This document shows, piece by piece, positions 6,062-27,902 of a DNA stretch of 64,000 nucleotides; position 1 is the first letter of the stretch, and each line of letters starts with the position of its first letter. The position numbers and the translations under genes are program-made. The stretch comes from Gammaproteobacteria bacterium (GTDB taxonomy: Bacteria > Pseudomonadota > Gammaproteobacteria > Eutrophobiales > Eutrophobiaceae), in contig CAXMWX010000003.1 in the NCBI GenBank assembly GCA_963422205.2, positions 29,623 to 93,622 on the forward strand, in the 5' to 3' direction. The notes under the pieces were generated by a model, which searched no databases, was not told where the DNA came from, and saw nothing but the letters and a program-made list of their open reading frames with translations.

Positions 6062-6910
6062 ATGCCGCAAATCGCGCTATTCGTTATTAACCTAAAGAGA
6101 TGCGCCGAGCGCCGGGCCCACATGGAAGACCTGCTTGGCCGAATGGGCCTGCACTATGAGTTTATCGAGGCGGTCGATGGCAATACGGTAAGCGAGAGTG
6201 CATACCTTGAAATGCGGCAGAGCAGCATCGACTGGGCAAGAAAATACTCTCGCAAGCCGCTCAGCAGGGGCGAGGTTGGCTGTCTGCTCAGTCATTTGCA
6301 AGCCTATGAAAAAATCCTGGCAGATAACATCGATTACGCCTGCATCATGGAAGATGATGTGGTGATCCATCACCCGGACAACCTGCGCTGGGTCTTGCAA
6401 GCAGAGCACCTGTCGGCCTTGAATGAGCGCACGCCTTTTGATCTTATTTATCTGTATCTGGGTTTTCAACGTTTCAAGCGCTTCAATCGTTGGCGCCAGG
6501 CACTGTTCCCCCATGTGACCGATGCCGATTTGTTTTCCAGATGGCCGAAGATAAAAGCCAAACCCGGGCTGTATTTGAGCAAACCCTGCCATAATTTCTG
6601 GGGGGCGGTTGCTTATCTGGTCAATCGAGATGCCTGTAGTGCGCTGTTGCAGCAAGGGCGGGCTGTACACCGGCCAGTCGATGTGCTGACAGCTTGCGCT
6701 ACATTACTTGGCCTACGGCAATACTACCTCAATCCGCTGCCGGTCGGCGTGCTGAATACCATGCCAAGCACCATTATCGATGAGGGCCGATTTTTCGAGC
6801 ACGTGAAATTTGATACATCATACTGGCGCACTGCGATTGCATTTGCATGCCAGAAGGCTGGGATCATCAGCCTGCACCACATGCTGAAAAAGCTGACACA
6901 TTACGATTAG
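6062..6910 (+). CDS. Glycosyltransferase family 25 (LPS/LOS biosynthesis, Lic2/LgtB-like)
   Basis: N-terminal FVINLKRCAERRAHME... and GEVGCLLSH...DYACIMEDDV are typical of GT25 enzymes. The gene is inserted into the conserved divergent hemA / TPR-lolB locus. Confidence 0.8.
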   Translation: MPQIALFVINLKRCAERRAHMEDLLGRMGLHYEFIEAVDGNTVSESAYLEMRQSSIDWARKYSRKPLSRGEVGCLLSHLQAYEKILADNIDYACIMEDDVVIHHPDNLRWVLQAEHLSALNERTPFDLIYLYLGFQRFKRFNRWRQALFPHVTDADLFSRWPKIKAKPGLYLSKPCHNFWGAVAYLVNRDACSALLQQGRAVHRPVDVLTACATLLGLRQYYLNPLPVGVLNTMPSTIIDEGRFFEHVKFDTSYWRTAIAFACQKAGIISLHHMLKKLTHYD

Positions 6911-7225
6911 CGGCCAGGTTGACCAGATGCAGGCATAACCGCCCTGTTCGGCCCTTGGCAGCCGTCTTGCCGAGGATGATGATTTGCCAGGCCGGTTGTC
7001 TTAAAAACATGACATCAACTGCCCCGCACCATTTAACAGGCGTGCCATTGATCTGCTTTTAAGCTACTGATATTTATATAAAAATTTATCTTATCGCCAG
7101 GCAATGACAGCGGGCGTATATCCGAGGTGCAGTTATTGAATGCGAAATTCTCTCGCAAAAACGCTACTATGCGGCATATCGTTGATATTGCCCTGCTGGT
7201 GCAGGCGGTTAAAATACTTAACAAG

Positions 7226-9031
7226 ATGATGAGAAAATCAGCCCCCATATACCGTGCTCTGCCGGTGCTCGCCCCGGTTCTTGCCTTGACCTTGGGCTTG
7301 ACTGCCTGTACCACCTTGCCCCCCGTTGATAAGCAGGCCGAGCCAGCCGCTGCCCCCGCCATGCCTGAACAGACAGCCGCCCCACAGGAAGCGAGAGAAA
7401 TTGAAGCGGCAAAAGCTGTCCAGATTGCCCCCGTCAGACCGAAGATAGAACTCAGCGAGGCACTGCTGTATGAATTGCTATTAGCTGAATTTGCCGGCCA
7501 TAACGGTGAGCTGGCTACGGCGGCTGAAACGTACCTGTCGCTGGCACAAAGTATCCAGGACCACAAGCTGGCCGAGCGCGCCACCCGCATTGCGGTCTAT
7601 GCCAGAGAAGATCAGGCGGCGGCAGAGGCCGCAACGCTATGGGCTGATCTTGACCCGCTCAACCCGGATCCTCATCAGGTGCTGGCGGTGATGGAACTGC
7701 GCCAGGGCAATATGGAAAAAACAGTCATGCACTTGCAGAGCATACTGGATTACTCGCATGGTGAGTTGGATCAGAAATTATGGATGATCGCCAACATGCT
7801 TGGCCGAGAGCGGGATGCAGAGCTGGTGCTGGATGTCATGGAAGAGTTGGTCGCCACGCATCACAGCTCAGCAGATGCCTTGTATGCTTTTGCCCATGTT
7901 GCTGCCCGTCTGGGCGATCTTGAAAGGTCAAGGCAGCTGTTCGCTGAAACGCTGGTGCTGGCTCCGGGGAACGATAATGCGGCCTTGAGCTATATCTCCG
8001 TGCTGCAAAAACTGGGCGAGGTGCAACCGGCATTGCAATGGCTTGAGCAAAGACTGGCAAACGAAGCGAGGGATAATTTCAATCTGCGTATGGCTTATGC
8101 CAGGCTGCTTGCCGAGACCAGACGCTATGATGATGCCCGCCAGCAATTTGAGTTGTTAGCCGTGCAATCGCCGGCCAATAATGAAGTGCTGTATGCCCTG
8201 GGCCTGCTGTATTTGCAATCCAACCGGCTGGATGATGCCCGGGTTTATTTTGAGCGGCTGACTGAAAAGAGCGCACAAACTGACAATGCTAACTATTATC
8301 TGGGGCGCATCAGCGAGGAGGAAAAAAATTATCCGGCGGCAAGTGGCTGGTATGAAGGCGTGCATAAAGGTGAAAACTATTTTGATGCACGAATCAGGCT
8401 GGCCTTGTTGCAGGCAAAGCTGGGCGATGTTGAAAAAGCCCGACAGGCGTTGCGTTTGATAACGACCGCCAATGAGCAGCAGATGGTTATCTTGGTGCAG
8501 GCTGAGGCTGAATTGCTGCTTGAGGAGAAGCGTTATCATGAGGCGCTGGAGGTGTATAACCGGGCCTTAACCGATAACGACAATACGGATCTGCTGTATG
8601 CCCGGGCGATGGTCGCTGAGAAGCTGGACCGGCTGGATATCGTTGAGGCCGATTTACGCCGAATCTTGGCACAGGAGCCGGATCATGCCAGTGCCTTGAA
8701 TGCGCTGGGCTATACGCTGGCAGACAGAACGGCACGCTATGACGAAGCCTATGGCCTGATCAAGCAGGCGCTGGCGCTTAATCCGGCTGATTTTTATATC
8801 CTCGACAGCATGGGCTGGGTGCTGTATCGGCTGGGCCGACTGGATGAGGCCATCACGTACTTAAAACAGGCGATGGCCTTGCGCCAAGACCCGGAAATTG
8901 CCGCCCACTTGGGCGAGGTGTTGTGGGTTAAAGGCGACAAGGAGGCCGCCCGGGCAGTGTGGGAAAGTGCCTTGAAGCTGACGCCGGACGATGCTGTGTT
9001 GCTGGATGTCATCAAGCGGTTTCAAAATTAA
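7226..9031 (+). CDS. Tetratricopeptide-repeat lipoprotein
   Basis: Signal peptide with lipobox (LALTLGLTAC) after the internal ATG at 7226, then many TPR-like helical repeats. It lies upstream of lolB as in Pseudomonas. Confidence 0.8.
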   Translation: MMRKSAPIYRALPVLAPVLALTLGLTACTTLPPVDKQAEPAAAPAMPEQTAAPQEAREIEAAKAVQIAPVRPKIELSEALLYELLLAEFAGHNGELATAAETYLSLAQSIQDHKLAERATRIAVYAREDQAAAEAATLWADLDPLNPDPHQVLAVMELRQGNMEKTVMHLQSILDYSHGELDQKLWMIANMLGRERDAELVLDVMEELVATHHSSADALYAFAHVAARLGDLERSRQLFAETLVLAPGNDNAALSYISVLQKLGEVQPALQWLEQRLANEARDNFNLRMAYARLLAETRRYDDARQQFELLAVQSPANNEVLYALGLLYLQSNRLDDARVYFERLTEKSAQTDNANYYLGRISEEEKNYPAASGWYEGVHKGENYFDARIRLALLQAKLGDVEKARQALRLITTANEQQMVILVQAEAELLLEEKRYHEALEVYNRALTDNDNTDLLYARAMVAEKLDRLDIVEADLRRILAQEPDHASALNALGYTLADRTARYDEAYGLIKQALALNPADFYILDSMGWVLYRLGRLDEAITYLKQAMALRQDPEIAAHLGEVLWVKGDKEAARAVWESALKLTPDDAVLLDVIKRFQN

Positions 9032-9730: not shown

Positions 9731-10602
9731 TCGAAGATTACTGGCCGGCACCGGCGAAGATCAATTTATTCCTGCATATCACCGGCCAGCGCGAAGATGG
9801 CTATCACTGCCTGCAAACTGTGTTTCAATTTCTCAAGCAGCATGACCGACTGTATTTCTCGCCGCGCAAGGATGGCCGGCTGACCAGGCAGGCGAACTAC
9901 TCGCCGGTTGATGAGCAGCAGGACCTGGTGATAAGAGCGGCCAGGGCCTTGCAGCAACACAGCACCTGCGGGCAGGGCGCCGATATCAGGATCGAGAAAT
10001 CATTGCCCGTGGGCGGCGGGCTGGGCGGTGGCAGCTCCAATGCCGCCACCACCTTGCATGCCTTGAATGCCCTCTGGGGCCTGGGCTTGTCGGTTGATAA
10101 GCTGGCCGGGATTGGCCTGTCTTTAGGGGCGGATGTGCCGGTATTCGTGCGGGGGCGTGCTGCCTGGGCGGAGGGCGTGGGTGAGATTTTGCGCCCGATT
10201 GCGCCGCCTGAGCGGTATTATGTGATCATCTGCCCCAACTGCCATGTGATGACAGCACAGGTCTTTGCCGATCCTGATTTGACACGTAACACACCGCCAA
10301 TCACAATATGCGACTTTCTCTCAGGCAAAGGTCATAATGACTGCGAGCCGGTTGTGCGCCGTGCCTATGCACAAGTAGACCAGGCCATGAACTGGCTGGC
10401 GCGGCGGGCCGAGGCCAGGCTCACCGGCACCGGGGCCTGTGTCTTTGCCGGTTTTAACAGCCAGCACAAGGCCGAGGAGGTACTCACCGATTTGCCGGAG
10501 AAATGGGAGGGATTTGTCACCCGGGGGCTGAATACCTCGCCTTTGCTGGAAAAGGCAGCAGGATGCCAGCACAAGACAGAGCAGATTGACGATGGGGTAT
10601 AG
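9715..10602 (+). CDS. ispE: 4-diphosphocytidyl-2-C-methyl-D-erythritol kinase
   Basis: WPAPAKINLFLHITGQREDGYH and the GHMP kinase motif PVGGGLGGGSSNAA. The 3' end overlaps the tRNA by about 10 nt. Confidence 0.95.
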   Translation: MAVRVIEDYWPAPAKINLFLHITGQREDGYHCLQTVFQFLKQHDRLYFSPRKDGRLTRQANYSPVDEQQDLVIRAARALQQHSTCGQGADIRIEKSLPVGGGLGGGSSNAATTLHALNALWGLGLSVDKLAGIGLSLGADVPVFVRGRAAWAEGVGEILRPIAPPERYYVIICPNCHVMTAQVFADPDLTRNTPPITICDFLSGKGHNDCEPVVRRAYAQVDQAMNWLARRAEARLTGTGACVFAGFNSQHKAEEVLTDLPEKWEGFVTRGLNTSPLLEKAAGCQHKTEQIDDGV

Positions 10603-10668
10603 CCAAGCTGGTAAGGCACAGGGTTTTGATCCCTGCATTCCCAGGTTCGAGTCCTGGTACCCCAGCCA
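10593..10668 (+). tRNA. tRNA-Gln (anticodon UUG)
   Basis: Hand-folded cloverleaf: acceptor TGGGGTA/TACCCCA, anticodon stem CAGGG/CCCTG with loop TTTTGAT, T-arm CCAGG-TTCGAGT-CCTGG, and an encoded CCA. Confidence 0.93.
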
Positions 10669-16885: not shown

Positions 16886-16907
16886 TTAACTCTGGCTTAA
16901 CTCTGGC
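16886..16907. repeat. Perfect 11-bp tandem duplication TTAACTCTGGC x2 spanning the trpC stop codon
   Basis: Read directly. The second copy contains the trpC TAA (16897-16899, minus strand). Confidence 0.8.
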
Positions 16908-17706
16908 CGAGTAGCTGCTGTAAGCACCGGCCCGGATCATCCGCCCGCATCAGTACCTCGCCGATGAGAAATACATGCACACCATGTTTTCGCATCATCT
17001 CAATGTCCGTCCGGCGGTGAATACCGCTCTCCGTGACCACGGTGCGATCAGGATAGACATCGATTAGCAAGTCCAGCGTCCTCTGCAAAGAGGTTTCAAA
17101 TGTATGCAGGTTGCGATTATTGATGCCGATCAGGGGCGAGCGCAGCATCATCGCCCGTTCCAGCTCTTCACGATCATGCACCTCCAGCAACACATCCAGC
17201 CCCAGCGCCTCGGCCAGGCCGTGCAACTCCTGCATCTGCCCATCGGTCAGCGCGGCAACGATCAGCAGGATAGCATCGGCACCCATCACCCGGGCCTCAT
17301 ACACCTGATAGGGATCGATGATAAAATCCTTGCGTAATACGGGCAGCCCCGCCGCTTGCTTGGCTTGGGTTAAATACGCATCGCTGCCCTGGAAAAATTT
17401 CTCATCCGTCAAGACAGACAGGCAGACAGCCCCGCCCTTATGATAAGAGTTGGCGATGGCAACAGGGTCGAAATTCTCCCTGATGATCCCCCTGCTGGGA
17501 GAGGCTTTTTTAAGCTCGGCTATCACGGCGACATGCCCCTGCCGCACCTGGCCGCTGATCGCCCGATAAAAGCCCAAGGTCGGCTCGGCATCCGCCGACT
17601 GCTGTTTTATATCTTGCAAGCTGATGTTTAACTGCCTGGCGGCGATCACTTCTTTTTTGCAGACCAGGATATCCTGCAACATGTCATGGCTTGCAGATGT
17701 GGGCAT
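16897..17706 (-). CDS. trpC: Indole-3-glycerol phosphate synthase
   Basis: [12 protein letters not shown]...[11 protein letters not shown]...INNRNL motifs. Confidence 0.96.
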
Positions 17707-17722
17707 GATGATTCCAGTTCGA

Positions 17723-18760
17723 TTATTCTAAAGCCAGGGTATTTGACAGTGTCACCAGCTGCTGCAACCTGGCCTTGGCCGCACCTGAGGCAAGTACCTC
17801 ATCGGCCAGCACCACACCGGCATTAAGGTCATCACACAGCCCGGCCAGATAGATCGCCGCCGCGGCGTTCAACACGACGATGTCGCGGCAGGGGCCGGGA
17901 TCGTTATTCAGCACAGCCTGCATCACGCTATGACTGTGCTCGGCACCATCAACGATCAGAGCCTGCCTGATTATCTTCCTGTCCGTCAGGCCAAAGCCAA
18001 ACCGGGCGGGATCGAGCGCATACTCGCTGATGGTATCATCTTTTAATTCAGCCACCCTGGTCGTCGCACACACACTGATCTCATCCATGCCATCGGCAGC
18101 GCATACCACCATGGCATGACAACTGCCCAGTTGTTGTAATACTTCGGCCAGCGGGCGCACCAGTTCCTCACTGTAGACGCCAACGAGTTGACGCTTGACC
18201 CGCGCCGGATTGGTCAGCGGGCCGAGTACATTAAAGATCGTGCGTATGGCCAACTCGGCGCGCGGGCCGGCGGCATGGCGCATCGCCGGATGATGCTTGG
18301 GCGCGAAGATGAAGCCGATGCCCAACTCCACAATGCAACGGGCGATGCCCTCCGGCGGCAGGTCTATGTTGACGCCGGCCTGTTGCAATACATCGGCGCT
18401 GCCGGAGCGGCTGGAGACAGCGCGGTTGTTATGCTTGGCGATGCGACCACCGGCTGCGGCAATGACAAACGCTGCTGTGGTGGAGATATTAAACGACTGG
18501 CTGCCATCACCGCCGGTGCCAACGATGTCCACCAGATTCGTATCGGCCACGCTGACCGGGGTGGCAAAGTCACGCATGACAGCAGCAGCAGCAGCAATCT
18601 CCGTCACTGTCTCGCCCTTCATCCGCAAGGCGATCAGGAAACCAGCAATCTGCGCCTCGGTCGCCTCGCCCGACATGATCGCCCGCATAACGGCCTGCAT
18701 CTGCCCCTGTTGCAGATCATAACCATCGACAAGCAGCGCTATGGCCTGTTGTATGTTCAT
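17723..18760 (-). CDS. trpD: Anthranilate phosphoribosyltransferase
   Basis: [23 protein letters not shown] and [17 protein letters not shown] motifs. Confidence 0.96.
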
Positions 18761-20439
18761 GCCAGGGTCGGTTGGGGTGAGCGAAGATTATCAGCAGGCA
18801 TTTTCCCGGCCCGATACGTTCCATCTATTGCCTCCAACCCAAGATACGCCAGCAGGGACGGGTTTGACGGCTGTTTGATATTGTTAAGGTAATCCAGATA
18901 AATCGGTATGCACTCCAGATGGGAGCGCAGTATCTTGTGTGTATTGAATAATTTTTTATGCAGCCAGTTGATCACATCCAGATTAAAGTATTCCACCAGC
19001 TTGCGGGTTTTCACCAAACGCTGCTCATCAATAATGAGCATGTTGGCACTGTTTAAGATAAACCGCTGTTGCTCATCACAGAAGAACACAAGATCAGAAG
19101 AGATGAAGCGGTAGATGATTTTGCAGGGTGCCTGATACAGCGTGAGCGGTGCCACCTGTTGGTATAGGGAAAAATCTGGCTGGAGGTAATGCGTGGGCTT
19201 TTTGATTCTGCCTTTGCCAATATCCGCCCCCTTAAACACGGGGACAAAGCCTGCTTGCGGATGCTCGACAAGATGTTTTTTATTGTTGCCGGTCACAATG
19301 CCCAGTCCCCATCTGGCCTTGTCTTTAAGCGTGGTGTGTGGTTGTTTGAGCATGAGCGCCAGCGCATCGGCTTCCGTTTCCCTGATGTCGAAATTGATAA
19401 TCGAGAAGGGGTTGTTTGCAAAAGTTGTTTGTCTGTGGGCGGTTGATTTTTCCCCTGAAAGACAATTTATTTTGTTCCCGAAGGCGGCCACCTTTTTGGA
19501 AAAAACAATAGCACTCGCCTTGGTCACGAGGCCCTCAAATGCTTTGCCAAAGTCAATCAACCATGCGATGTTCTGGGCTAATACGATGTTGCGAATCTCG
19601 TGAAATGACTTCACGTTAAAAAATGATTCGGGCAACAACAGCCCTATCTTTCCGTTTTCCTGGACAGATTTTAACATGGCCATCGTAAATAACGCACAAG
19701 AATCAAACGACTGCTGCAAGCCAAACCTTTTGGACAAGACCTGCCTTTGATTCTTAAAATATTTTTTACCCCAGGGCGGGTTGGTGATAAGCACATCGTA
19801 TCTTGCAGCATCGGTCAGGGACAGGAAATCAGCAACCCGCAAATTTTCCCCCTTGTACCCGCTGCGATCAAACAGGCGCCGCCTAGCGATTTCCAGTGCT
19901 ACCGTATCCACCTCATAGCCGGTGAGATGGCGAGGCGACACACCGGCTTCCAGGGCAGCGATTAAAAAATTACCGCTGCCGCAACACGGATCACAAAATC
20001 GGGTTTTTTGATTTAAATCCGCCTTTGCAATCAAGTCCCGACATAATGCCATGGGCGTGTAGTAGACGCCTTGCTTGTTTTTATACGTATTTGAAAGCAC
20101 ATCCTCATACGCCTGTGCCAGTCGGTCGCCATGGTTTTTATCCGCCGGATTGTGCCAGACCTTGTTAAAAATTTCCGCCGCCAGCGGTGCATGATCGTGC
20201 ATTTGAGCATGCTGTTTATTGGCCCTGGCGATGAGCTTCTCATGACCGACAATGTCCTGACAGAATTTCTCGAATGATTGTTTTTTCAGGTAGCCTTTGT
20301 ATTCCGATTTCTCCAGATACCCGGCTTTTATCCAGTTGACTATCGAGGCATGAGAGACGTTGAGCAATGCAGTCGCCTCGGTATAAGAAAGCAGATCAGC
20401 ATGGGCGATGGGATGCTTAAAAAAAAATTTCTGCTGCAT
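18757..20439 (-). CDS. Gamma-class N6-adenine DNA methyltransferase (TaqI/Eco57I-like) with an N-terminal helix-turn-helix
   Basis: Motif I FCDPCCGSGNFL and motif IV VLITNPPWG. The N-terminal LLSYTEATALLNVSHASIVNWIKAGYL is excisionase/MerR-type HTH-like. Likely start is the ATG at 20439 (MQQKFFFK); the ORF stays open up to 20622. Its TGA overlaps the trpD ATG (ATGA). Confidence 0.8.
   Translation of the reverse strand: MQQKFFFKHPIAHADLLSYTEATALLNVSHASIVNWIKAGYLEKSEYKGYLKKQSFEKFCQDIVGHEKLIARANKQHAQMHDHAPLAAEIFNKVWHNPADKNHGDRLAQAYEDVLSNTYKNKQGVYYTPMALCRDLIAKADLNQKTRFCDPCCGSGNFLIAALEAGVSPRHLTGYEVDTVALEIARRRLFDRSGYKGENLRVADFLSLTDAARYDVLITNPPWGKKYFKNQRQVLSKRFGLQQSFDSCALFTMAMLKSVQENGKIGLLLPESFFNVKSFHEIRNIVLAQNIAWLIDFGKAFEGLVTKASAIVFSKKVAAFGNKINCLSGEKSTAHRQTTFANNPFSIINFDIRETEADALALMLKQPHTTLKDKARWGLGIVTGNNKKHLVEHPQAGFVPVFKGADIGKGRIKKPTHYLQPDFSLYQQVAPLTLYQAPCKIIYRFISSDLVFFCDEQQRFILNSANMLIIDEQRLVKTRKLVEYFNLDVINWLHKKLFNTHKILRSHLECIPIYLDYLNNIKQPSNPSLLAYLGLEAIDGTYRAGKMPADNLRSPQPTLA
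20419..20427. repeat. A9/T9 homopolymer in codons 5-7 (FFF) of the gamma-class methyltransferase
   Basis: Counted directly (ggatgctt + 9 a + ttt). Confidence 0.9.
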
Positions 20440-20706
20440 TGATGTCTTCGGGTAAGGGGCTGGATAAACCGCCCCGGCTTGGTTGACAAGACGGCAGGAT
20501 ATTATCACACCAATACCGTATTTCAATGGATTAGCGTGTTGCACAGCAGCCTCCCGACGCCTTGCCTGCCATGTCGATAAAGTCTCGCCAGTGAGTGATT
20601 GAGGATTGGGGTCGATCGCCATTTACAGGCATGACTGCGGTCGCCGGGGCTAACTCTACCATGCAGGTTTTCAAACAAAACAGGGGTGCTGGAATTTTTT
20701 ATACTA

Positions 20707-21153
20707 CTAATGCGGTTGTGTAAACTCAAAGAGGGATTGGAGTAATCTCGCATTATATTTCGATATTTTATCAATCCTGGTTTGTTTTCTGGTATAAAGA
20801 GCCTCTTTGTCATTGGTGGTTTTCACTCTTTCCCGATTTTCAAAATCTGAAAAAACAGCTTCATTTGGATTAATACTTAAAACTACATTTCTGTTGCCAC
20901 GACGAGATATGTCTTTGTGCTTGTACTTGTGAATATAAATCAAATTTCGATAGTCATCGATCATTTTTGCTTCCTCTTTGTTGCGGGCTGATGAGATGGG
21001 AACGATGTGATGAAGTTCAAACTTGTCTCTTTTTTTCCACTTCATGAAAGCTAAAATATTTGCGTTTTGGAATAGCACTTCTTCTTGTCGATCTATGGAA
21101 AAATCCTGTGTTTCCAACATTGAGTCGGAAAAATCGGTTATTATCAACTTCAA
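20707..21153 (-). CDS. HNH nuclease domain ORF, the C-terminal part of a split restriction endonuclease
   Basis: FELHHIVPIS...DDYRNLIYIHKYKH fits the HNH pattern (HH...N...H). It overlaps the upstream 313-aa ORF by 137 nt in the +1 frame. Confidence 0.7.
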   Translation of the reverse strand: MKLIITDFSDSMLETQDFSIDRQEEVLFQNANILAFMKWKKRDKFELHHIVPISSARNKEEAKMIDDYRNLIYIHKYKHKDISRRGNRNVVLSINPNEAVFSDFENRERVKTTNDKEALYTRKQTRIDKISKYNARLLQSLFEFTQPH

Positions 21154-21958
21154 AATAGACAGTCGTTTTCAGCAAACCCATAATCTGCTGCGCCTGATTC
21201 TTCCAATTATGAATATCACGTTTAGCGGTTTTGTTTCCCTCAAAATTTTGAGGATTGGCATACGCCTTTACCAATTTGATCACCTTTCTTTGCTCATATT
21301 TTCTCAAGCTACGATATGAATCAAGGAGCTTGATTTTGTCTATACCCTCATTATCATCTGAGAAAATAAACATGAATTCATAGATGCTTATCTTATCATT
21401 CATATAATCGCTAAGATGTAACATGGTCGCCAGTTCAGAAATCCTGCTGCCAAATAGTCTATCTATGGCGTCAGTAAATTTTTTGTACCTGTCAATCAAA
21501 ATATCTGCTTCGATAAATTCAACTGCTCTTATCGTCAATCTACCATGAAAAATTGTTTTTCCCGTTTCATTTATTTTAATTTTTTCTCTTGCCAAAAACC
21601 CCATTTTTTCCAAATCAGGAAAGAAATTCTTTTTTATGGAATTAATCGTACCACGCCCCAATCCAGAATTTATCCTGTCGACGATTGCCTGGTAATGTCT
21701 AGCGTACTCCGGCAACTCATCGTCTTTTGCGTAGTCGCCTGGAGGAATTGTGAAATAATCTGTTCCCACAACATCATATATATTCTGTAAAATCAACCCA
21801 ATGTCATTTAAATTATATCTGTTATGTTGAGAAATATGCCAACCACGATAATTATCATCAAGCAGCCGATTTATTATGTATGTTAAGAAAAGATTATTCT
21901 CTTTTATCGATAAAATCTCATCCAGAATTTGCTGTGTTTCTTTAAGGGCGATATTCAT
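21017..21958 (-). CDS. Putative restriction endonuclease N-terminal (DNA-recognition) part, no recognisable catalytic motif
   Basis: 313-aa AT-rich ORF with a 4-nt overlap to the upstream methyltransferase stop. It ends 11 nt after an A7 tract, and a 1-nt shorter tract would join it to the HNH ORF. Confidence 0.6.
   Translation of the reverse strand: MNIALKETQQILDEILSIKENNLFLTYIINRLLDDNYRGWHISQHNRYNLNDIGLILQNIYDVVGTDYFTIPPGDYAKDDELPEYARHYQAIVDRINSGLGRGTINSIKKNFFPDLEKMGFLAREKIKINETGKTIFHGRLTIRAVEFIEADILIDRYKKFTDAIDRLFGSRISELATMLHLSDYMNDKISIYEFMFIFSDDNEGIDKIKLLDSYRSLRKYEQRKVIKLVKAYANPQNFEGNKTAKRDIHNWKNQAQQIMGLLKTTVYFEVDNNRFFRLNVGNTGFFHRSTRRSAIPKRKYFSFHEVEKKRQV
21030..21036. repeat. T7 (A7 on the coding strand) homopolymer at the frame break of the nuclease gene
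   Basis: Coding strand: GTG GAA AAA AAG AGA CAA GTT TGA in the upstream frame, against ATG AAG TGG AAA AAA AGA GAC AAG TTT GAA CTT CAT CAC in the HNH frame. Confidence 0.9.
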
Positions 21959-22725
21959 CTGACTTCCCTTAATTTTTTTCTGGCTATTGCTACATAGTCT
22001 TTTTCTATATCACAACACAGAAAATTCCTTTTTAGTTTTTTTGCGGCAACTGCTGTTGTACCAACGCCAACAAAACAATCCAAAATCAGGTCATTTTTAT
22101 TTGAACTTGCCTTGATGATTCTCCTTATCAACTCTAATGGCTTTGGCGTAGCATGTTGCATCTTTTGAACTTTACCATTGACTTTATTTTTATGTCTCTC
22201 ACTCGTAATATGCCAGACTTCGCCGCAAAGTTTTCCCTTTGGATTAGGAAACCAACGTTTGCCGTTTTTAATTATACCTTTCCTTTTTGCATGCTCAATT
22301 CTCTTCGTTGACTCATAAGGAATACGTACAGCATCATAGTTGAACGTGTGGTTTTTTCCCTTAGTGAAGAAAATTATCGTTTCCTGTCCATTGCTAAAAC
22401 GCTTTCTGGCACCGCTCAATCCATCTCTTTTATCCCAGGTTATCCAGTTTTGAAAATACATACCCTTGCTGACAAGATATTGCAGTATGAATGCCGAATT
22501 ATATGGTGTATTAAAAATATACAGGCTGCCATTGCGTTTTAGTTTTGGAATAAGAGCATCTATCCAGGAATAGGTAAAATCAAAAAATGCTTTTCTTGAT
22601 TTGAAGGTATCCCAATATGCTTTTCGCATATTGTAGGGCGGGTCAATAATAGCCAGATCAATAATGTCATCATCAACCTGTTGCAAAAATTTAAAGCAAT
22701 CCATTTGATATATTTTATTTAGCAT
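21955..22725 (-). CDS. Beta-class DNA methyltransferase (N4/N6 family, DPPY type, probably m6A)
   Basis: Motif IV LAIIDPPYN lies N-terminal and motif I LDCFVGVGTT lies C-terminal, which is the beta-class order. Confidence 0.88.
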   Translation of the reverse strand: MLNKIYQMDCFKFLQQVDDDIIDLAIIDPPYNMRKAYWDTFKSRKAFFDFTYSWIDALIPKLKRNGSLYIFNTPYNSAFILQYLVSKGMYFQNWITWDKRDGLSGARKRFSNGQETIIFFTKGKNHTFNYDAVRIPYESTKRIEHAKRKGIIKNGKRWFPNPKGKLCGEVWHITSERHKNKVNGKVQKMQHATPKPLELIRRIIKASSNKNDLILDCFVGVGTTAVAAKKLKRNFLCCDIEKDYVAIARKKLREVR

Positions 22726-23612
22726 AATTTTTTTTGATGCGATTCTTGCTCAAGGAGCATTTTAGCTAACCCTAACTTTTTATCGATTATTCTCCGGTAA
22801 TTTTTCATTACTTCATAACCAATAAAATGACGTCCCTCTTCTTTTGCCACTTTTAAGGTTGTGCCGCTACCTGCAAAAGGATCAAGCACAACATCATCAA
22901 TATAAGTAAATAACCTTACGCAACGATAAACAATCTCTTCTGGCATAATGGCACTATGATTACCAAAGGCAATATCATTTTTCCCCGGAACAGGTATTCG
23001 CCAAATCTGTTTTGTGAATTTCACCCATTCCTCTTCGGTTAGTTTACTTTGTTCTCTGATTTTCCTAGGCTTATTATTTACTGTTTTACCGTCTTTCACA
23101 TAGACAGTTATAAATTCACTGGTATTTTGTGCGTAAAAATTTCTTGGATAAGGATAACTTCCAAACATCAGTTTTTTACTTGGATTAGTTCGATCCCAAA
23201 TATAAACATCATATAAAAACATATCCGTTTTTTCCTGATATAAAATCGAATGCTGTATGTCAGCATTAAGATCAAAAATGTGTCTATTATAGTGCGTTGA
23301 GTAATCCGCCTTCTTCATTGGCACAAGTGGAGTATTGATTATCAGTTTTCCATTTGGTTTTAATACCCGCTCACACTCTTGCCAAACTTTCAATAGCCCT
23401 TTAATGAATAACTCATAATCATTTATATCGCCAAGCTGCTCTTTATGTTTTTTGTCATTACTGTTTTTTTGATAGCCATCCTTGGCATAATCTTTAATAT
23501 TAAAATAAGGCGGCGATGTAACGATCAAATGAACTGCCCTGTCTGGGACTTCACGCATATTTTGAGCGTTTTTATAAAACACTTTATTTAGAAAATCTTT
23601 ATTCTTATGCAC
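22719..23612 (-). CDS. Beta-class DNA methyltransferase (N4/N6 family, SPPY type, possibly m4C)
   Basis: Motif IV LIVTSPPYF lies N-terminal and motif I LDPFAGSGTT lies C-terminal. GTG start with GAGG 8 nt upstream. Confidence 0.88.
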   Translation of the reverse strand: MHKNKDFLNKVFYKNAQNMREVPDRAVHLIVTSPPYFNIKDYAKDGYQKNSNDKKHKEQLGDINDYELFIKGLLKVWQECERVLKPNGKLIINTPLVPMKKADYSTHYNRHIFDLNADIQHSILYQEKTDMFLYDVYIWDRTNPSKKLMFGSYPYPRNFYAQNTSEFITVYVKDGKTVNNKPRKIREQSKLTEEEWVKFTKQIWRIPVPGKNDIAFGNHSAIMPEEIVYRCVRLFTYIDDVVLDPFAGSGTTLKVAKEEGRHFIGYEVMKNYRRIIDKKLGLAKMLLEQESHQKKLC

Positions 23613-23739
23613 AGATCGCCTCGGGTATTGCTTTATTTAAGTTGCAAGCTGCTGATATTTGATTCCACAACGCTTGCCGACTTGCCTGTTTATCGCACAT
23701 GGGTACTTAAATGATAACCTGAACGATCTCATGCCTTGA

Positions 23740-24327
23740 TTATTCCTGCCCCAGCGAGATAAAATTCTTTAACAGATCATGGCCGCAGGTAGTCAGTATG
23801 GATTCTGGATGAAACTGCACCCCATAGACAGGATAGTCTTTATGTCGAACTCCCATGATCTCATCCATGCTGCCATCAGCATGCTGCGTCCAGGCGGTGA
23901 CTTCAAGGCAGCCGGGCAAGGTATCTTTGGCTACCACCAGGGAATGGTAGCGGGTGGCGATAAGAGGCACTTCCAACCCGCTGAACACATCGCTGTCAGC
24001 ATGAAAGATGGCGGAGGTCTTGCCGTGCATGACCTGTTGGGCATGTATGATGTTGCCGCCAAACACCTGGCCGATACTCTGATGCCCCAGACAAACGCCT
24101 AAGATCGGCACCTGCCCCTTGAATGCGTCAATCACTGCCATGGAAATGCCGGCCTTATCCGGCGTACACGGGCCGGGCGAGATAACCAGACGTTGCGGTG
24201 CCAGGGCGGCGATCTCATCAATACTGATAACATCATTGCGGTATACCTTGACATCCTGCCCCAGCTCGCCGAGGTACTGCACCAGGTTGTAGGTAAACGA
24301 ATCGTAGTTGTCTATCATCAGCAACAT
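23740..24327 (-). CDS. trpG: Anthranilate synthase component II (glutamine amidotransferase)
   Basis: [18 protein letters not shown]... with the GVCLGHQ catalytic Cys and the HPES triad. Confidence 0.96.
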
Positions 24328-24335
24328 AAACGTCT

Positions 24336-25835
24336 CTACCGCAAGCCTTTTTCCGCCATGGATACGGCGCGGAAGATCGCCCGGCCTTTATTCATGGTCT
24401 CATCCCATTCTTTTTCCGGATCGGAATCCGCAACGATGCCGGCGCCCGCCTGAATGTGTAATGTTCCCGCCTTTATGATGGCCGTGCGGATGGCAATCGC
24501 CGTATCCATGTTGCCCGCCCAGGAGATATAACCCACGGCGCCGGAATAGACGCCGCGCGCTACCGGTTCCAACTCATCGATGATCTGCATTGCCCGAATC
24601 TTTGGCGCACCGGCGACCGTACCGGCCGGGAAGCAGTGCATCAAGACATCAACGGCGCGGGCGCCGGCCTTTATCCTGCCAATGACATTGGAGACAATGT
24701 GCATGACATGGGAATAACGCTCGACAGTCATGTTCTCCGTCACCTTGACCGAGCCGGTCATCGCCACCCGGCCAACATCGTTGCGCCCCAGATCGATCAG
24801 CATCAGGTGCTCGGCACGCTCCTTGGGGTCAGCCAGCAGTTCCTGCGCCAGTGCCTTGTCCTGCTCTTCATTCTCGCCTCTCGGCCGGGTACCGGCTATC
24901 GGCCTGACCGTGACCATGCCATCCTCCAGCCGCGTCAAGACCTCCGGCGAAGCACCGACCACAAAAAAATCATCGAGATGCAGATGAAACATATATGGCG
25001 AAGGATTGGTGCAGCGCAGGGCGCGGTACAGTTGCAGCGGCGCCGCCTTGAACGGGATCGACAGACGTTGCGATAACACCACCTGCATGGCATCGCCCGC
25101 TATGATGTAATCCTGGATACGCTTCACTGCCCGGATAAATTTTTCCTTGCTCAAGCCGGAGATAAAATGCTTCTCTTCAACCGCTATCCCGGAGGCGAAG
25201 GCATCTTTTTGCGGCAGCTCATGCTTGATGAGTTTTCTCTCCAGCGTATCCAGCGCCTGTTGCGCCCTAGCATAGGCATCATCCTCGCTCGGATCAGCAT
25301 GGACGATCAGCATCACCCTGGCGCTGATATTATCGAAGACAACGACCCGATCACACACCAGCAGCACGATGTCCGGGCAATCCAGCGGGTCGGGCTTCGG
25401 CGGACCGGAGGCCCCAGGCTCAACGTAGCGGATACACTCATAACCAAAATAACCCACCAGCCCACCGGTAAACCGCGGCAGGTTGTCCAGCTGGGGGACG
25501 CGGTAGCGTTGCCGGAATGCCTCGATCTCGGCGAACGGATCGCTGATCTGTTTTTCTGTGATAAGTCGGCTGCCGATTTCAATTTTCATGGTATGGTTTT
25601 TCACGCTGAGTTGTGCGCTCGCCGATAAACCAATGAACGAGTAATGCGCCCATTGCTCTCCGCCTTGCACAGATTCCAGCAGAAACGTGCGTTTACCGTT
25701 GGCCAGCTTCATATAGGCGCTGAGCGGCGTATCCAGATCGGCCAGCAATTCTCTGATGACCGGGATATGGTTATAGCCCTGGTCGGCGAGCGCGGCAAAA
25801 CGCTCGGCGGTGACGATGTTCTGCATCTCATCCAT
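24336..25835 (-). CDS. trpE: Anthranilate synthase component I
   Basis: 499 aa, LLESV... Trp-feedback region and the C-terminal chorismate-binding motifs [20 protein letters not shown]. Confidence 0.96.
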
Positions 25836-26530
25836 GGGCGAGTGCCAAAGGCGCAGCTAACGGCCGACGGATTGCAGCTTCTCCCGCATCCGCGTATGGT
25901 GGCGGCATAGTCATTGCTGCTGAAAATGGCGGAGCCAGCGACAAACGTATCCGCACCAGCGGCGGCAATGTCGGCAATATTATCGCTGCTTACCCCGCCA
26001 TCAATTTCCAGCCGAATGTCACGGCCACTGGCGGCAATCATCCGGCGGGCAGTACGCAGCTTGTCCAGCGCCGAGGCAATGAAGCATTGGCCGCCGAAGC
26101 CCGGATTGACCGACATCAGCAAGATCATATCAATATGCTCCAGCACATAATGCAGATGATGCAGCGGCGTGGCCGGATTAAACACCAGCCCGGCCTTGCA
26201 GCCGGCTTCCTTGATCAGCCGCAGGGAGCGATCAATATGCTCGCTGGCCTCGGGGTGAAACGTCATATAATCAGCGCCCGCCGCCGCAAAGGCCGGGATG
26301 AGGCCATCCACCGGCTTGACCATCAGGTGTACGTCCAGCGGGGCGGTGATCCCGTAATCACGCAGGGCGGCCACCAGCACCGGGCCGAAGGTCAGGTTGG
26401 GCACGTAATGGTTATCCATCACATCAATGTGGATCATATCAGCACCAGCGGCGAGAACGGCGGCCACCTCATCGCCCAGACGGGCAATATCGGCCGCCAG
26501 AATGGATGGGGCAATAAGGTAGTCGGTCAT
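25709..26530 (-). CDS. rpe: Ribulose-phosphate 3-epimerase, with the 3' end apparently frameshifted (canonical-looking stop at 25857-25859 in another frame)
   Basis: [22 protein letters not shown]...[17 protein letters not shown]...VNPGFGGQ motifs. The last roughly 60 codons of the ORF are Arg/Ser/Pro-rich and overlap trpE by 127 nt. Confidence 0.9.
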
Positions 26531-26966
26531 CGGTGTGTGTGGGCGATCATCGTGCAGGTTATGCACTTTACCCGATCAGCGATGGTATCGCCAATGCCAG
26601 CGGTTACCGTTTATGGCTGATGGGGCTGCTGCAACAAGGCGTTTGATTTTTTCAGCCAGTTGCAAAACCCCGCAATACCCGTGGTGCATATCTGTGATGG
26701 TCAGGGTTTTGCTGTCATAATAACCTGAGGCGGATGAGCGGAGGCGGACGGGCAAGGCATTATTAAATTTTCAGATAAAAGGGACCATGGGTTATGTTGT
26801 TTGCTCTGTTTTACTATTAAAGTTTGTCATTAATTGGTATCTTTCTGATTATTGCACTGATAATTTACAGCCTGGTCATGATCATGATTACCGCAATAAA
26901 AACCTGTCACGGTGCAGCTTGCCGTTATCCGCTCACGTTACGATCAATAACATAAAGGGGCGTATC

Positions 26967-27902
26967 ATGCTTGAAATCGTATCAATCGGTTTGTTCATCC
27001 TCGGCATCGTCTTATTGTTTAAAATGGCGGTGGTGGTGCCGCAAGGCTATGAATACACGGTCGAGTATTTTGGCAAATACACCAAGACCCTGCGTCCTGG
27101 CCTGCATTTTATCATACCCATCGTTGAGTTCATTGGCTCGAAGATGAACATGATGGAGACCGTGCTGGATGTGCCAACACAAGAGGTGATCACCAAGGAC
27201 AATGCGATGGTGGCGGTTGATGGCGTGGTCTTCTTTCAGGTGCTGGATGCTCCCAAGGCCGCCTACGAGGTCAATCACCTGTCACATGCCATCCTGAACC
27301 TGACCATGACCAATATCAGGACGGTCATGGGCTCCATGGATTTGGATGAGTTGCTGTCAAAACGGGATCATATCAATGCCCAGTTATTGCAGGTCGTTGA
27401 TGAGGCAACCGGCCCCTGGGGGGTCAAGGTGACCCGCATTGAGATCAAGGACATTACGCCGCCACGGGACCTGGTCGATGCCATGGCGAGACAAATGAAG
27501 GCCGAACGTGACAAACGGGCACAGATCCTGGAGGCCGAGGGCGAGAAACAGGCCGAGATATTGCGCGCCGATGGGGAAAAACAGGCGGCGATCTTAGAAG
27601 CCGAGGGCCGGCGTGAAGCCGCTTTTAAGGATGCCGAGGCACGTGAGCGTCTGGCCGAGGCCGAGGCCAAGGCAACAGCCGATGTCTCTGTGGCGATTGC
27701 CAGCGGTGATATTCAGGCCATCAATTATTTTGTTGCCAATAAATATGTCGAGGCATTGAAAGAGATTGCCGTTGCGCCTAATCAGAAAGTCGTCTTGATG
27801 CCGTTGGAGGCGGGCAATGTGATCGGCGCATTGGGCGGCATAACCGAGATCGCCAAGGAGACCTTTGCCAGCAAAGGCGCTGGCAAGGCGGTCGCGAAGT
27901 AG
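26967..27902 (+). CDS. SPFH/band-7 (stomatin/QmcA-like) membrane protein
   Basis: ATG at 26967 preceded by AAGGGG. TM helix then [29 protein letters not shown], with a C-terminal coiled-coil EAEG repeat. Followed by NfeD, as in E. coli qmcA-ybbJ. Confidence 0.9.

Follow-up and report, generated by a model that had tools for sequence, protein, structure and literature searches.

An MboII-type cassette and a solitary methyltransferase gene at the trpG/trpD junction of a trp gene string

Restriction-modification (RM) units that lack mobility genes enter operon-like gene clusters, frequently where translation starts or stops (PMC2853133, PMC2993543). The MboII system of Moraxella bovis is a Type IIS system that includes the nuclease R.MboII and the methyltransferases (MTases) M1.MboII (M.MboIIA) and M2.MboII. 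MboII has been placed in the HNH class (PMC2441816), and the specificity of M1.MboII is GAAGA (PMC7544214). Here, we describe a locus in which both themes are combined, within a 64-kb stretch of DNA (the window). A 4,972-nt segment of the window, made up of a 4,965-nt insert (18764-23728) and one additional copy of a 7-bp repeat, is horizontally acquired and lies exactly at the short junction between the trpG stop and the trpD start (Table 1). Two unrelated methylation modules make up the insert, an MboII-type cassette and a solitary MTase. Very probably, the arrangement reflects the insertion, at the trpG/trpD junction, of an acquired MboII-type cassette, now with a broken nuclease frame, along with the solitary MTase.

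Table 1. Features of the interrupted trp gene string and of the inserted segment (positions are those of the window).
Feature	Position	Strand	Remarks
trpE	24336-25835	minus	ORF call; orthologues in related loci share 51-61% identity
trpG	23740-24327	minus	ORF call; Pfam GATase and NCBIfam match
GGCATGA, left copy of 7-bp direct repeat	23729-23735	minus	4 nt past trpG stop
Leader, 116 nt	23613-23728	minus	similarity searches found no source
MboII-family Type IIS block, M2-M1-nuclease	20693-23612	minus	34-36% GC; three genes
M2, beta-class SPPY amino-MTase, intact	22719-23612	minus	GTG start
M1, beta-class DPPY N6-adenine MTase, intact	21955-22725	minus	M1.MboII (M.MboIIA) orthologue
Type IIS restriction endonuclease gene, MboII family	20707-21958	minus	416 aa if repaired
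Nuclease fragments	21017-21958 (313-aa ORF) and 20707-21153	minus	last 106 codons in +1 frame
Frameshift site, A7 run GTGGAAAAAAAGAGAC	21030-21036	minus	intact relatives encode V-E-K-R-D
Spacer	20440-20706	minus	cassette homology stops at 20693, then 253 nt of ~51% GC
MTase3, solitary gamma-class NPPW N6-adenine MTase	18757-20439	minus	in 621-aa ORF 18757-20622
GGCATGA, right copy	18757-18763	minus	holds working trpD start codon and MTase3 stop
trpD	17723-18760	minus	TIGR01245 trpD, E 1.8e-121 (NCBIfam)
trpC	16897-17706	minus	ORF call; trpD-trpC is the downstream half of the string, 16897-18760

A first-pass annotation of this DNA had proposed that trpEG and trpDC are split by extra, foreign DNA whose genes run in the trp direction, and the comparisons made here agree. 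The upstream half of the interrupted string (23740-25835) begins ~25 nt after rpe, with 8 nt between trpE and trpG, and every gene of the locus, trp or inserted, is on the minus strand in the ORF list. The trpG and trpD genes are contiguous in 14 relatives, spaced by 0-50 nt in 12 distant ones and abutting in the two nearest found, L032 and L033 (74% and 69% TrpD identity); here they are 4,972 nt apart. The TrpD N-terminus, MNIQQAI, is the same as in L032 and L033. The search for relatives turned up none closer than 74% in TrpD, and hence no sister strain with a true empty site; the insertion may be of any age. Pfam and NCBIfam searches support trpG, trpD and all three MTases, and the proposed content of three MTases and a split HNH nuclease is upheld by Pfam and PADLOC profiles. 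The overlaps that had been described are likewise present: 7 nt between M2 and M1, and ATGA both between M1 and the nuclease and between MTase3 and trpD.

The first-pass annotation saw no convincing flanking repeats, but the 7-bp GGCATGA brackets the insert exactly at both ends. The left copy holds the ancestral trpD start codon, with the native AGGA/AAGG ribosome-binding region just before it, and no Shine-Dalgarno sequence lies upstream of the working trpD start in the right copy (CCCAACCGACCCTGGCATG). The reconstructed empty site is similar to the L032 junction, ACGGCATGAATATTCAACAGGCC. The repeat is short, and its chance expectation from shuffles ranges from 0.005 to 0.07 by the framing of the test (p ~ 0.005 this near the trpG stop, ~ 0.067 anywhere in the leader). 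Either duplication of a short target site or illegitimate recombination through microhomology could have left it. Neither the insert nor the MboII block is bounded by significant inverted repeats. None of the five insert ORFs matches a mobility family such as integrase or transposase in Pfam, NCBIfam or PADLOC, and the only tRNA in the window (10593-10668) is 8 kb from the insert, in line with the earlier observation that mobility genes and a tRNA attachment site are absent.

Base composition separates the modules. The MboII block has a GC of 0.34-0.36 and a GC3 of 0.30-0.36, MTase3 0.475 and 0.56, and the trp genes 0.53-0.59 and 0.65-0.70. Windows of 1 kb with GC below 45% occur in the insert only (window starts 20001-23001). 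These profiles, together with trpG-trpD adjacency in relatives, support a foreign origin of the inserted DNA. The idea of a single AT-rich island holds for the MboII block and fails for 18.76-20.6 kb, which is mildly AT-shifted, giving two compositional classes. Given 35% versus 47.5% GC, the two modules probably differ in donor or in time of arrival.

The gene content had been thought not to match a textbook system. Instead, the three AT-rich genes form a canonical Type IIS system of the MboII family, and the gene content overall is this cassette plus a separate solitary MTase as fourth gene. M1 matches crystallised M.MboIIA (PDB 1G60) with 67% identity over 249 ungapped residues (phmmer, E 9.8e-123), contains the DPPY motif and has a Pfam N6_N4_Mtase match of E 3e-63. 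M2 matches Pfam N6_N4_Mtase (E 1e-47) and PADLOC MTase_II PDLC03353 (E 7.5e-86), and is probably an N4-cytosine enzyme, assigned by the position of M2.MboII in its cassette. The M2-M1-nuclease unit recurs in L034, L035 and L015 at 73-76% nucleotide identity, and M2 shares 80-84% amino-acid identity with their first MTase. From the 67% identity of one MTase, M1, we infer that the cassette probably recognises GAAGA/TCTTC or a sequence close to it. In the host flanks, GAAGA has an observed/expected ratio of 1.26, with no depletion, which is uninformative on specificity.

At its upstream end, the cassette is cut close to M2. In L034 and L035, an HTH_3 gene (E 7e-17) lies upstream of M2 and the whole is bounded by perfect 30-nt terminal inverted repeats. 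The controller (HTH) gene is absent at this locus: homology to L034 and L035 begins at the M2 start (nucleotide homology to L034 at 23607), and the leader has no HTH coding. The ATG used by M2 in other cassettes is AAG here; a GTG two codons upstream, at 23612, serves instead, with a GAGG Shine-Dalgarno sequence provided by the leader. The interval between trpG and M2 (127 nt, 23613-23739) is 43% GC, and the leader has no similarity to the cassette relatives or to any locus fetched. A 31-codon ORF (23732-23637), mostly inside the leader, begins at the old trpD ATG.

The two nuclease fragments fit a single 416-position PADLOC profile, PDLC03506, one covering positions 7-316 of it and the other 308-413. 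Once repaired, the protein can be aligned over its full length with over 100 intact homologues of 405-430 aa, and identity to those of 405-417 aa reaches 73%; the recognition region is N-terminal and the HNH domain C-terminal. Residues H316, H317, N338 and H347 are invariant across the homologues. One intact homologue, P0002, was modelled with AF2 (pLDDT 87.8), and there the motif sits on a beta-beta-alpha element. A whole-chain fold search of the PDB gave no significant match. In the window, one extra A in the A7 run leads to a TGA stop directly ahead of the catalytic ELHH...N...H motif. At face value, the nuclease is broken and the locus methylates without restriction. Elsewhere in the window, ~5 kb from the nuclease frameshift, a 1-nt indel disrupts the 3' end of the housekeeping gene rpe; this suggests indel errors in the assembly, and the nuclease may be intact in the organism.

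MTase3 has its true start at M62 of the longer ORF, according to homologue alignment. It has an N-terminal HTH, an N6_Mtase domain and a TaqI_C specificity domain (Pfam N6_Mtase, TaqI_C and Eco57I, with a weak HTH_17), and matches PADLOC PDLC03356 with E 2.8e-165. Some database entries name the family 'M.VspI', an automatic label at ~44% identity. The nearest homologues (L019-L021, 60-64% identity) are solitary, and a relative at 44% (L036) has an adjacent Type II restriction endonuclease (PDLC03414, E 4e-135), of which tblastn found no trace in the whole window. MTase3 is flanked by trpD directly downstream and a 253-nt spacer upstream, with no nuclease gene, and probably derives from an ordinary Type II MTase-nuclease pair that has since lost its nuclease. 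An ORF in the spacer has no family match. Homologues of MTase3 end in GTYRxKK*; here the protein continues ~14 aa past that stop, and its own TGA is part of the ATGA with which trpD begins.

How might the genes be expressed across the junction? The routes proposed below are read from the sequence, and counts from the promoter and terminator scans were near the shuffled expectation. The cassette came without the controller-protein gene and upstream region of its closest relatives, and its first gene starts on signals from non-cassette leader DNA. The promoter scan gave no sigma-70-like site on the minus strand of the leader, and no convincing minus-strand terminator was found in the insert. The loss of the controller region, along with the start of M2 on leader signals, makes read-through from the host rpe-trpE-trpG unit the most likely route of cassette transcription. 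The trpD gene left its own ribosome-binding site behind at the left insert end, and its translation now most likely depends on termination-reinitiation coupling at the MTase3/trpD ATGA. Transcripts of trpD would be supplied by read-through, by a promoter-like site upstream of MTase3 (TTGAAA-16-TGaTAATAT, 20526-20499, ~60 nt upstream, a consensus match only), or by both. The earlier proposal that trpD-trpC are expressed either across the insert or from inside it is supported. Co-regulation with amino-acid supply, also suggested, finds no support here, as no trp leader, attenuator or Rfam element was found at the locus and trpE starts so soon after rpe.

So, is the nuclease gene truly broken? 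If the frameshift is an assembly or base-calling error, an intact, active MboII-type system lies inside the trp string and could both restrict and cause post-segregational killing. We consider this unlikely on balance, though a serious contender. It would account for a single extra base in a homopolymer, and the second 1-nt indel, in rpe, lies in the same window. The 106 codons after the shift have no stops in an AT-rich gene, and the nuclease shows no excess of non-synonymous change relative to the MTases (1.7-fold, compared with 1.7- to 2.2-fold between intact relatives), which suggests that the shift is either recent or an artefact. However, the public gene call of the same genome is an equally truncated 313-aa product (P0001, 100% identity), placing the shift in the deposited assembly, and 10 more ORFs checked in the window (6 as adjacent pairs) are unsplit. 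Loss of the nuclease with retention of the MTases is also a common fate of RM systems, which counts against an error. A different possibility is that the A7 tract acts as a switch, with replication slippage (phase variation) or transcriptional slippage restoring the frame in some cells or transcripts, so that restriction would be low-level or heterogeneous. The shift does fall in a poly-A run, and indel mutations of mboIIM2 near A/T runs were partly rescued by transcriptional slippage (PMC4417176, PMC6260861), but rescue by the RNA polymerase of the E. coli host fell well below that by T7 polymerase (PMC6260861) and A7 is short for efficient slippage. L015, an intact relative with DNA examined here, lacks the homopolymer (GAAAAGCGG), so the tract is not a conserved family feature, and we view a switch as very unlikely.

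The position of the insert raises another question, prompted by the first-pass annotation, namely whether residence in the trp string is adaptive for the element, through protection from deletion and expression tied to tryptophan supply. Any deletion with inexact ends would cost trpD its start or trpG its end, and the cassette appears to depend on upstream host transcription as trpD appears to depend on MTase3 translation. Yet precise excision between the 7-bp repeats would rebuild the operon, a tryptophan-responsive leader, attenuator or riboswitch was not found, trpE lies only ~25 nt past rpe, and the arrangement is a single occurrence, with no recurrence at trp loci among 24 related loci. 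Stabilisation is also a weaker idea if the nuclease is truly inactive. Neutral insertion at a tolerated intercistronic site explains the arrangement equally well, as noted for other RM insertions (PMC2853133), and we regard an adaptive position as unlikely. That the low-GC DNA belongs to another organism and was misjoined into a metagenome contig would explain the sharp compositional break; a source genome that lacks close relatives, with at least one further indel anomaly in its assembly, also speaks for it. Such a chimera is highly improbable: both halves of the operon resume exactly where the insert stops, with the 7-bp repeat as bracket, the MTase3 frame runs on into the ATGA of trpD, and two internal compositional classes are joined by unique spacers, whereas a misjoin would not rebuild the operon. 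An acquired cassette with a broken nuclease frame, inserted with a solitary MTase, remains the best explanation.

Compared with the MboII system, the locus likewise has two beta-class MTases and a ~416-aa nuclease with a C-terminal HNH motif, encoded in compact, AT-rich genes with overlapping or abutting reading frames; M2 and the nuclease are likened to it by family match and position. It differs from MboII in the +1 break of the nuclease frame at the A7 run, in its place within a host operon and in its use of foreign signals to start translation. RM operons with C proteins carry a small upstream HTH gene, which the window lacks. MTase3 has the domain order of solitary Type II gamma-class MTases of the TaqI_C/Eco57I type (HTH, N6_Mtase with NPPW, TaqI_C). 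Unlike the lineage-wide orphan regulators Dam and CcrM, it is not kept at this locus in relatives, and unlike other orphan gamma-class MTases it extends at its C-terminus into trpD. Further parallels are the RM units of Furuta, Abe and Kobayashi 2010 (PMC2853133) and Ishikawa et al. 2010 (PMC2993543), with which the locus shares the lack of integrase or transposase, an exact gene-boundary site, two intact neighbours, a short direct repeat and co-orientation. The repeat is 7 bp here, versus 8 bp or ~100 bp reported for those insertions, and the bounding inverted repeats of L034 and L035, reminiscent of the transposon-like units in those studies, are missing from the window copy. Unlike those units, a full system is here accompanied by an unrelated solitary MTase, and the downstream trpD is apparently coupled in translation to a foreign MTase. 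Insertion of RM systems into operons is already documented, and this case is a clean, but not unprecedented, example.

The tryptophan operon is interrupted between trpG and trpD. ORF calls together with Pfam and NCBIfam assignments bear out the separation of trpEG from trpDC noted in the first-pass annotation, and place five foreign ORFs in the gap, all on the minus strand and including three DNA methyltransferases confirmed by both profile sets. The gene overlaps listed there (7 nt, ATGA and ATGA) are correct. The AT-rich island is real, in that GC falls below 45% in 1-kb windows only within the insert, but it comprises two compositional classes rather than one. Overall, the observation of an island inside the trp gene string is confirmed, and the interpretation first placed on it is partly supported.

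Positions and composition of the trp genes and the parts of the insert
Feature	Position	Strand	Basis	GC	GC3
trpE	24336-25835	minus	ORF call		
trpG	23740-24327	minus	ORF call, Pfam, NCBIfam		
Insert	18764-23728	minus			
Leader (116 nt)	23613-23728				
M2 (SPPY methyltransferase)	22719-23612	minus			
M1 (DPPY methyltransferase)	21955-22725	minus			
Nuclease gene	20707-21958	minus			
AT-rich block	20.7-23.6 kb			34-36%	30-36%
Spacer	20440-20706				
MTase3 (third, NPPW methyltransferase)	18757-20439	minus		47.5%	56%
trpD	17723-18760	minus	ORF call, Pfam, NCBIfam		
trpC	16897-17706	minus	ORF call		
trp genes together				53-59%	65-70%

The initial view that no textbook system obviously fits does not hold for the AT-rich block, which by homology is a textbook MboII-family Type IIS restriction-modification cassette. 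In M1, 249 residues align without a gap to the crystallised M.MboIIA (PDB 1G60), 67% of them identical (E 1e-122); the methylation target of M1.MboII is the 3' adenine of GAAGA (PMC7544214). The SPPY methyltransferase, an intact beta-class N4/N6 enzyme, occupies the M2 position. Both nuclease ORFs match one 416-position PADLOC Type II REase profile (positions 7-316 and 308-413) and are halves of one gene. Joined across an A-run, they give a 416-aa protein that is gapless at the joint against intact homologues of 405-417 aa (identity ≤ 73%), with His316, His317, Asn338 and His347 invariant in the alignment. MboII has been placed in the HNH superfamily (PMC2441816, PMC2699513). The AlphaFold model of an intact homologue (P0002, pLDDT 87.8) sets the invariant His and Asn residues on a beta-beta-alpha element, and a PDB fold search with this model returned no match at E ≤ 0.001 and no solved structure matching the whole protein. 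The N-terminal ~270 residues of the model (m2d1c607e063d) are weakly like the recognition domain of Nt.BspD6I, a Type IIS nickase (Foldseek probability 0.98, TM 0.37, E 0.19). The M2-M1-R unit recurs at three other loci (L015, L034 and L035) in unrelated contexts, at 73-76% nucleotide identity. Among plasmids, a search for nuclease homologues found only distant ones (34%), on small Helicobacter suis plasmids. No avoidance of GAAGA or ATTAAT was seen in host DNA, which is uninformative. Four in-frame A7/A8 runs occur in the two cassette methyltransferases (at 23470, 22735, 22042 and 21979).

The fourth gene, MTase3, stands apart from the cassette and is a solitary N6-adenine methyltransferase of the gamma class; it carries an HTH at the N-terminus, the NPPW motif and, for specificity, a TaqI_C domain. 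Alignment with homologues places its true start at Met62 of the long ORF (position 20439). The homologues nearest to it (60-64%) are solitary and sit in unrelated neighbourhoods. One (60%, locus L020) lies ~75 nt downstream of a tRNA-like gene recognised by eye at about 7850-7925; tRNA genes are classic integration sites. In a 44%-identical relative (locus L036), a 243-aa ORF at 6628-7359 overlaps the end of the methyltransferase gene and matches a Type II nuclease (PADLOC PDLC03414, E 4e-135), which shows the family normally to be an M-then-R pair. Because this relative is paired with a nuclease and tblastn with that nuclease found no remnant of it in the window, the reading that fits MTase3 best is a methyltransferase left over from a Type II pair. 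The ‘M.VspI’ label carried by some database relatives is automatic annotation and says little on specificity. A T9 run at 20419-20427 (minus strand), in codons 4-7 of MTase3 (MQQKFFFKH), is in frame and a potential slippage site. An annotation should list the AT-rich block as a Type IIS system of the MboII family, its nuclease disrupted, and the fourth gene as a solitary methyltransferase apart from it, with none of these genes entered as unknown or as part of a novel defence system.

The ends of the insert can be placed to the base pair. The heptamer GGCATGA (minus strand) lies at 23735-23729, 4 nt past the trpG stop, and again at 18763-18757, where it contains the trpD start, so that the earlier statement that there are no convincing flanking repeats was too strong. 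In shuffles, a 7-mer overlapping the trpD ATG recurred anywhere in the leader with p = 0.067; for a recurrence no more than 15 nt from the trpG stop, p was 0.005. Dropping the 4,965 nt between the heptamers together with one copy yields ...GGGGCAGGAATAATCAAGGCATGAACATACAACAGGCC, and the predicted empty trpG-trpD site reads ...AATAATCAAGGCATGAACATACAACAGG... This reconstructed junction is a normal trpG/trpD joint with a purine-rich ribosome-binding region, and is similar to that of the locus with the nearest TrpD (L032, ACGGCATGAATATTCAACAGGCC). The heptamer pair would fit duplication of a short target and joining through microhomology equally well. A long target duplication is rejected, since the local alignment of leader and spacer is no better than shuffles, 76 of 300 of which reached its score; the 26-nt likeness of the two methyltransferase starts (23602-23627 and 20429-20454; family D11), considered as such a duplication, is attributed to chance. 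Neither leader nor spacer had a blastn match to indicate its origin, whether in any of the retrieved loci or elsewhere in the window, and the spacer ORF had no Pfam match.

Relatives were sought in GTDB species representatives, JGI metagenome contigs and a set of 5.8 billion proteins. Across 12 distant relatives in the GTDB species set (TrpD identity 47-63%), the trpG-trpD gap is 15-50 nt. The two nearest TrpD sequences came from the search of 5.8 billion proteins: in L032 (74% identical, on a 3.5-kb contig) trpG and trpD overlap as ATGA, and in L033 (69%) they abut as TAG-ATG within the gene string rpe-trpE-trpG-trpD-trpC. As far as available relatives can show, the insert-bearing arrangement is derived. 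None of the three sets held a relative closer than 74% TrpD identity or yielded a true empty site, so the insertion may be of any age.

Both joints have been remodelled. The left copy of the heptamer retains the old trpD ribosome-binding site and ATG, and from this old start runs a 31-codon ORF (MRSFRLSFKYPCAINRQVGKRCGIKYQQLAT; 23732-23637, minus strand) that ends 24 nt ahead of the M2 GTG and could couple translation into the cassette. Homology to the cassette relatives starts at 23607, the M2 start, where the window has AAG against ATG in the relatives; a GTG two codons upstream and a GAGG Shine-Dalgarno in the non-cassette leader substitute for it. At the other end, MTase3 homologues normally terminate in GTYRxKK-stop, and the window copy runs ~14 residues longer, stopping at the TGA within the ATGA where trpD begins. 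Ahead of the working trpD ATG stands CCCAACCGACCCTGGC, without a Shine-Dalgarno.

Upstream of M2, the cassettes of L034 and L035, the MboII cassette's closest relatives, carry a controller-like HTH_3 gene of 70 aa (at about 93-305 and 101-313, respectively; Pfam E 7e-17) and are bounded by perfect 30-nt terminal inverted repeats; the window has neither, and the gene is absent from L015 too. The inverted repeats, at 1-30 and 3198-3227 in L034 (contig of 3,227 nt) and at 1-30 and 3649-3678 in L035 (contig of 3,678 nt), have a length that presumably reflects k-1 of a k=31 assembly graph, and the actual repeats could extend further. Some 20 of 120 nuclease homologues are on cassette-sized contigs (3.1-3.7 kb). 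There are hints here that the MboII-cassette relatives form a unit with inverted repeats at its borders, one that is mobile or varies between strains. The core of the L034/L035 repeat is absent from the window at ≤ 4 mismatches, and neither the insert nor the MboII block is flanked by inverted repeats. As for the nuclease 3' end as a possible remnant, just 19 of 28 positions match by eye, and we do not claim it.

An additional A, in the A7 run at 21030-21036, breaks the nuclease reading frame. In the window this stretch is GTG GAA AAA AAG AGA CAA GTT TGA, and the intact relative L015 encodes V-E-K-R-D-K-F-E at this site (GTGGAAAAGCGGGAC). The resulting stop falls just ahead of the catalytic ELHH motif, and the predicted 313-aa product would retain the recognition region without the nuclease. 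Beyond the frameshift, 106 codons remain open. Non-synonymous divergence of the nuclease relative to the two methyltransferases is ~1.7-fold, compared with 1.7- to 2.2-fold between intact relatives (the comparison uses dN ratios alone because of saturation at synonymous sites). Given the open codons and the matching ratio, the shift is either recent or unreal.

A second single-base shift occurs in rpe, the housekeeping gene for ribulose-phosphate 3-epimerase (25709-26566, minus strand), near 25870-25880 and ~12 codons before the expected end; another frame continues like the L033 orthologue, and the called frame extends 60 aa, overlapping trpE by 127 nt. This suggests a real lesion or assembly indel errors, and a second such shift makes the latter likelier in the nuclease as well. 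We consider an artefact somewhat unlikely. That the A-run acts as a slippage switch, by analogy with mboIIM2, where indels are rescued by slippage (PMC4417176, PMC6260861), strikes us as quite improbable. Genuine recent inactivation of the nuclease takes the remaining probability.

Promoter and terminator scans found no sigma-70-like site in the leader and no convincing minus-strand terminator in the insert. These are consensus matches whose counts lie near shuffled expectation, so what follows on expression is offered as hypothesis. With no promoter-like site in the leader and no convincing terminator, the cassette would most simply owe its transcription to read-through from rpe-trpE-trpG, and trpD would most likely be translated by termination-reinitiation at the MTase3/trpD ATGA. 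If the frameshift is real, ~580 nt of untranslated RNA would precede MTase3 and could give polarity; a promoter-like TTGAAA-16-TGaTAATAT at 20526-20499 could then drive transcription of MTase3-trpD-trpC. The suggested co-regulation with amino-acid supply finds no support, as no tryptophan-responsive RNA element was found and trpE begins ~25 nt after rpe. Further upstream, GC dips to 40-43% at 26600-27050, between rpe and a divergent band-7/SPFH-like gene (26787-27902), and this is probably a promoter region.

An unlikely extension is that insert and operon now each depend on the other. The cassette, left with neither a promoter nor a controller region of its own, would be expressed only from the host transcript, as a passenger of rpe-trpEG; trpD, its ribosome-binding site lost to the insert, would be translated only through coupling to the foreign methyltransferase. 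If so, losing or silencing either partner would be costly, a positional form of genetic addiction that would persist after nuclease decay.

Insertion of restriction-modification units into operon-like clusters was reportedly described between 2000 and 2010. The trp locus is a well-resolved new instance of such insertion and no new class of system. It gives a base-pair-resolved example of a cassette without mobility genes set between two genes that are translationally coupled and lie only a few nucleotides apart, neither of which was destroyed, and of the remodelling of the joints: the old trpD start was turned into a leader ORF, the foreign methyltransferase runs into the trpD start, and the cassette start codon was replaced. 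Mobile restriction-modification units to which no mobility genes are linked are already known, among them units at translation start or stop sites, units flanked by direct repeats of short or long extent, units with inverted repeats at their ends, and units in operon-like clusters (PMC2853133, PMC2993543). Particular to the trp locus are that its insert is composite, joining a complete Type IIS system to a solitary methyltransferase unrelated to it, that the cassette has apparently lost the control region it once had, and that translation of a host biosynthetic gene is probably coupled to that of a foreign methyltransferase.
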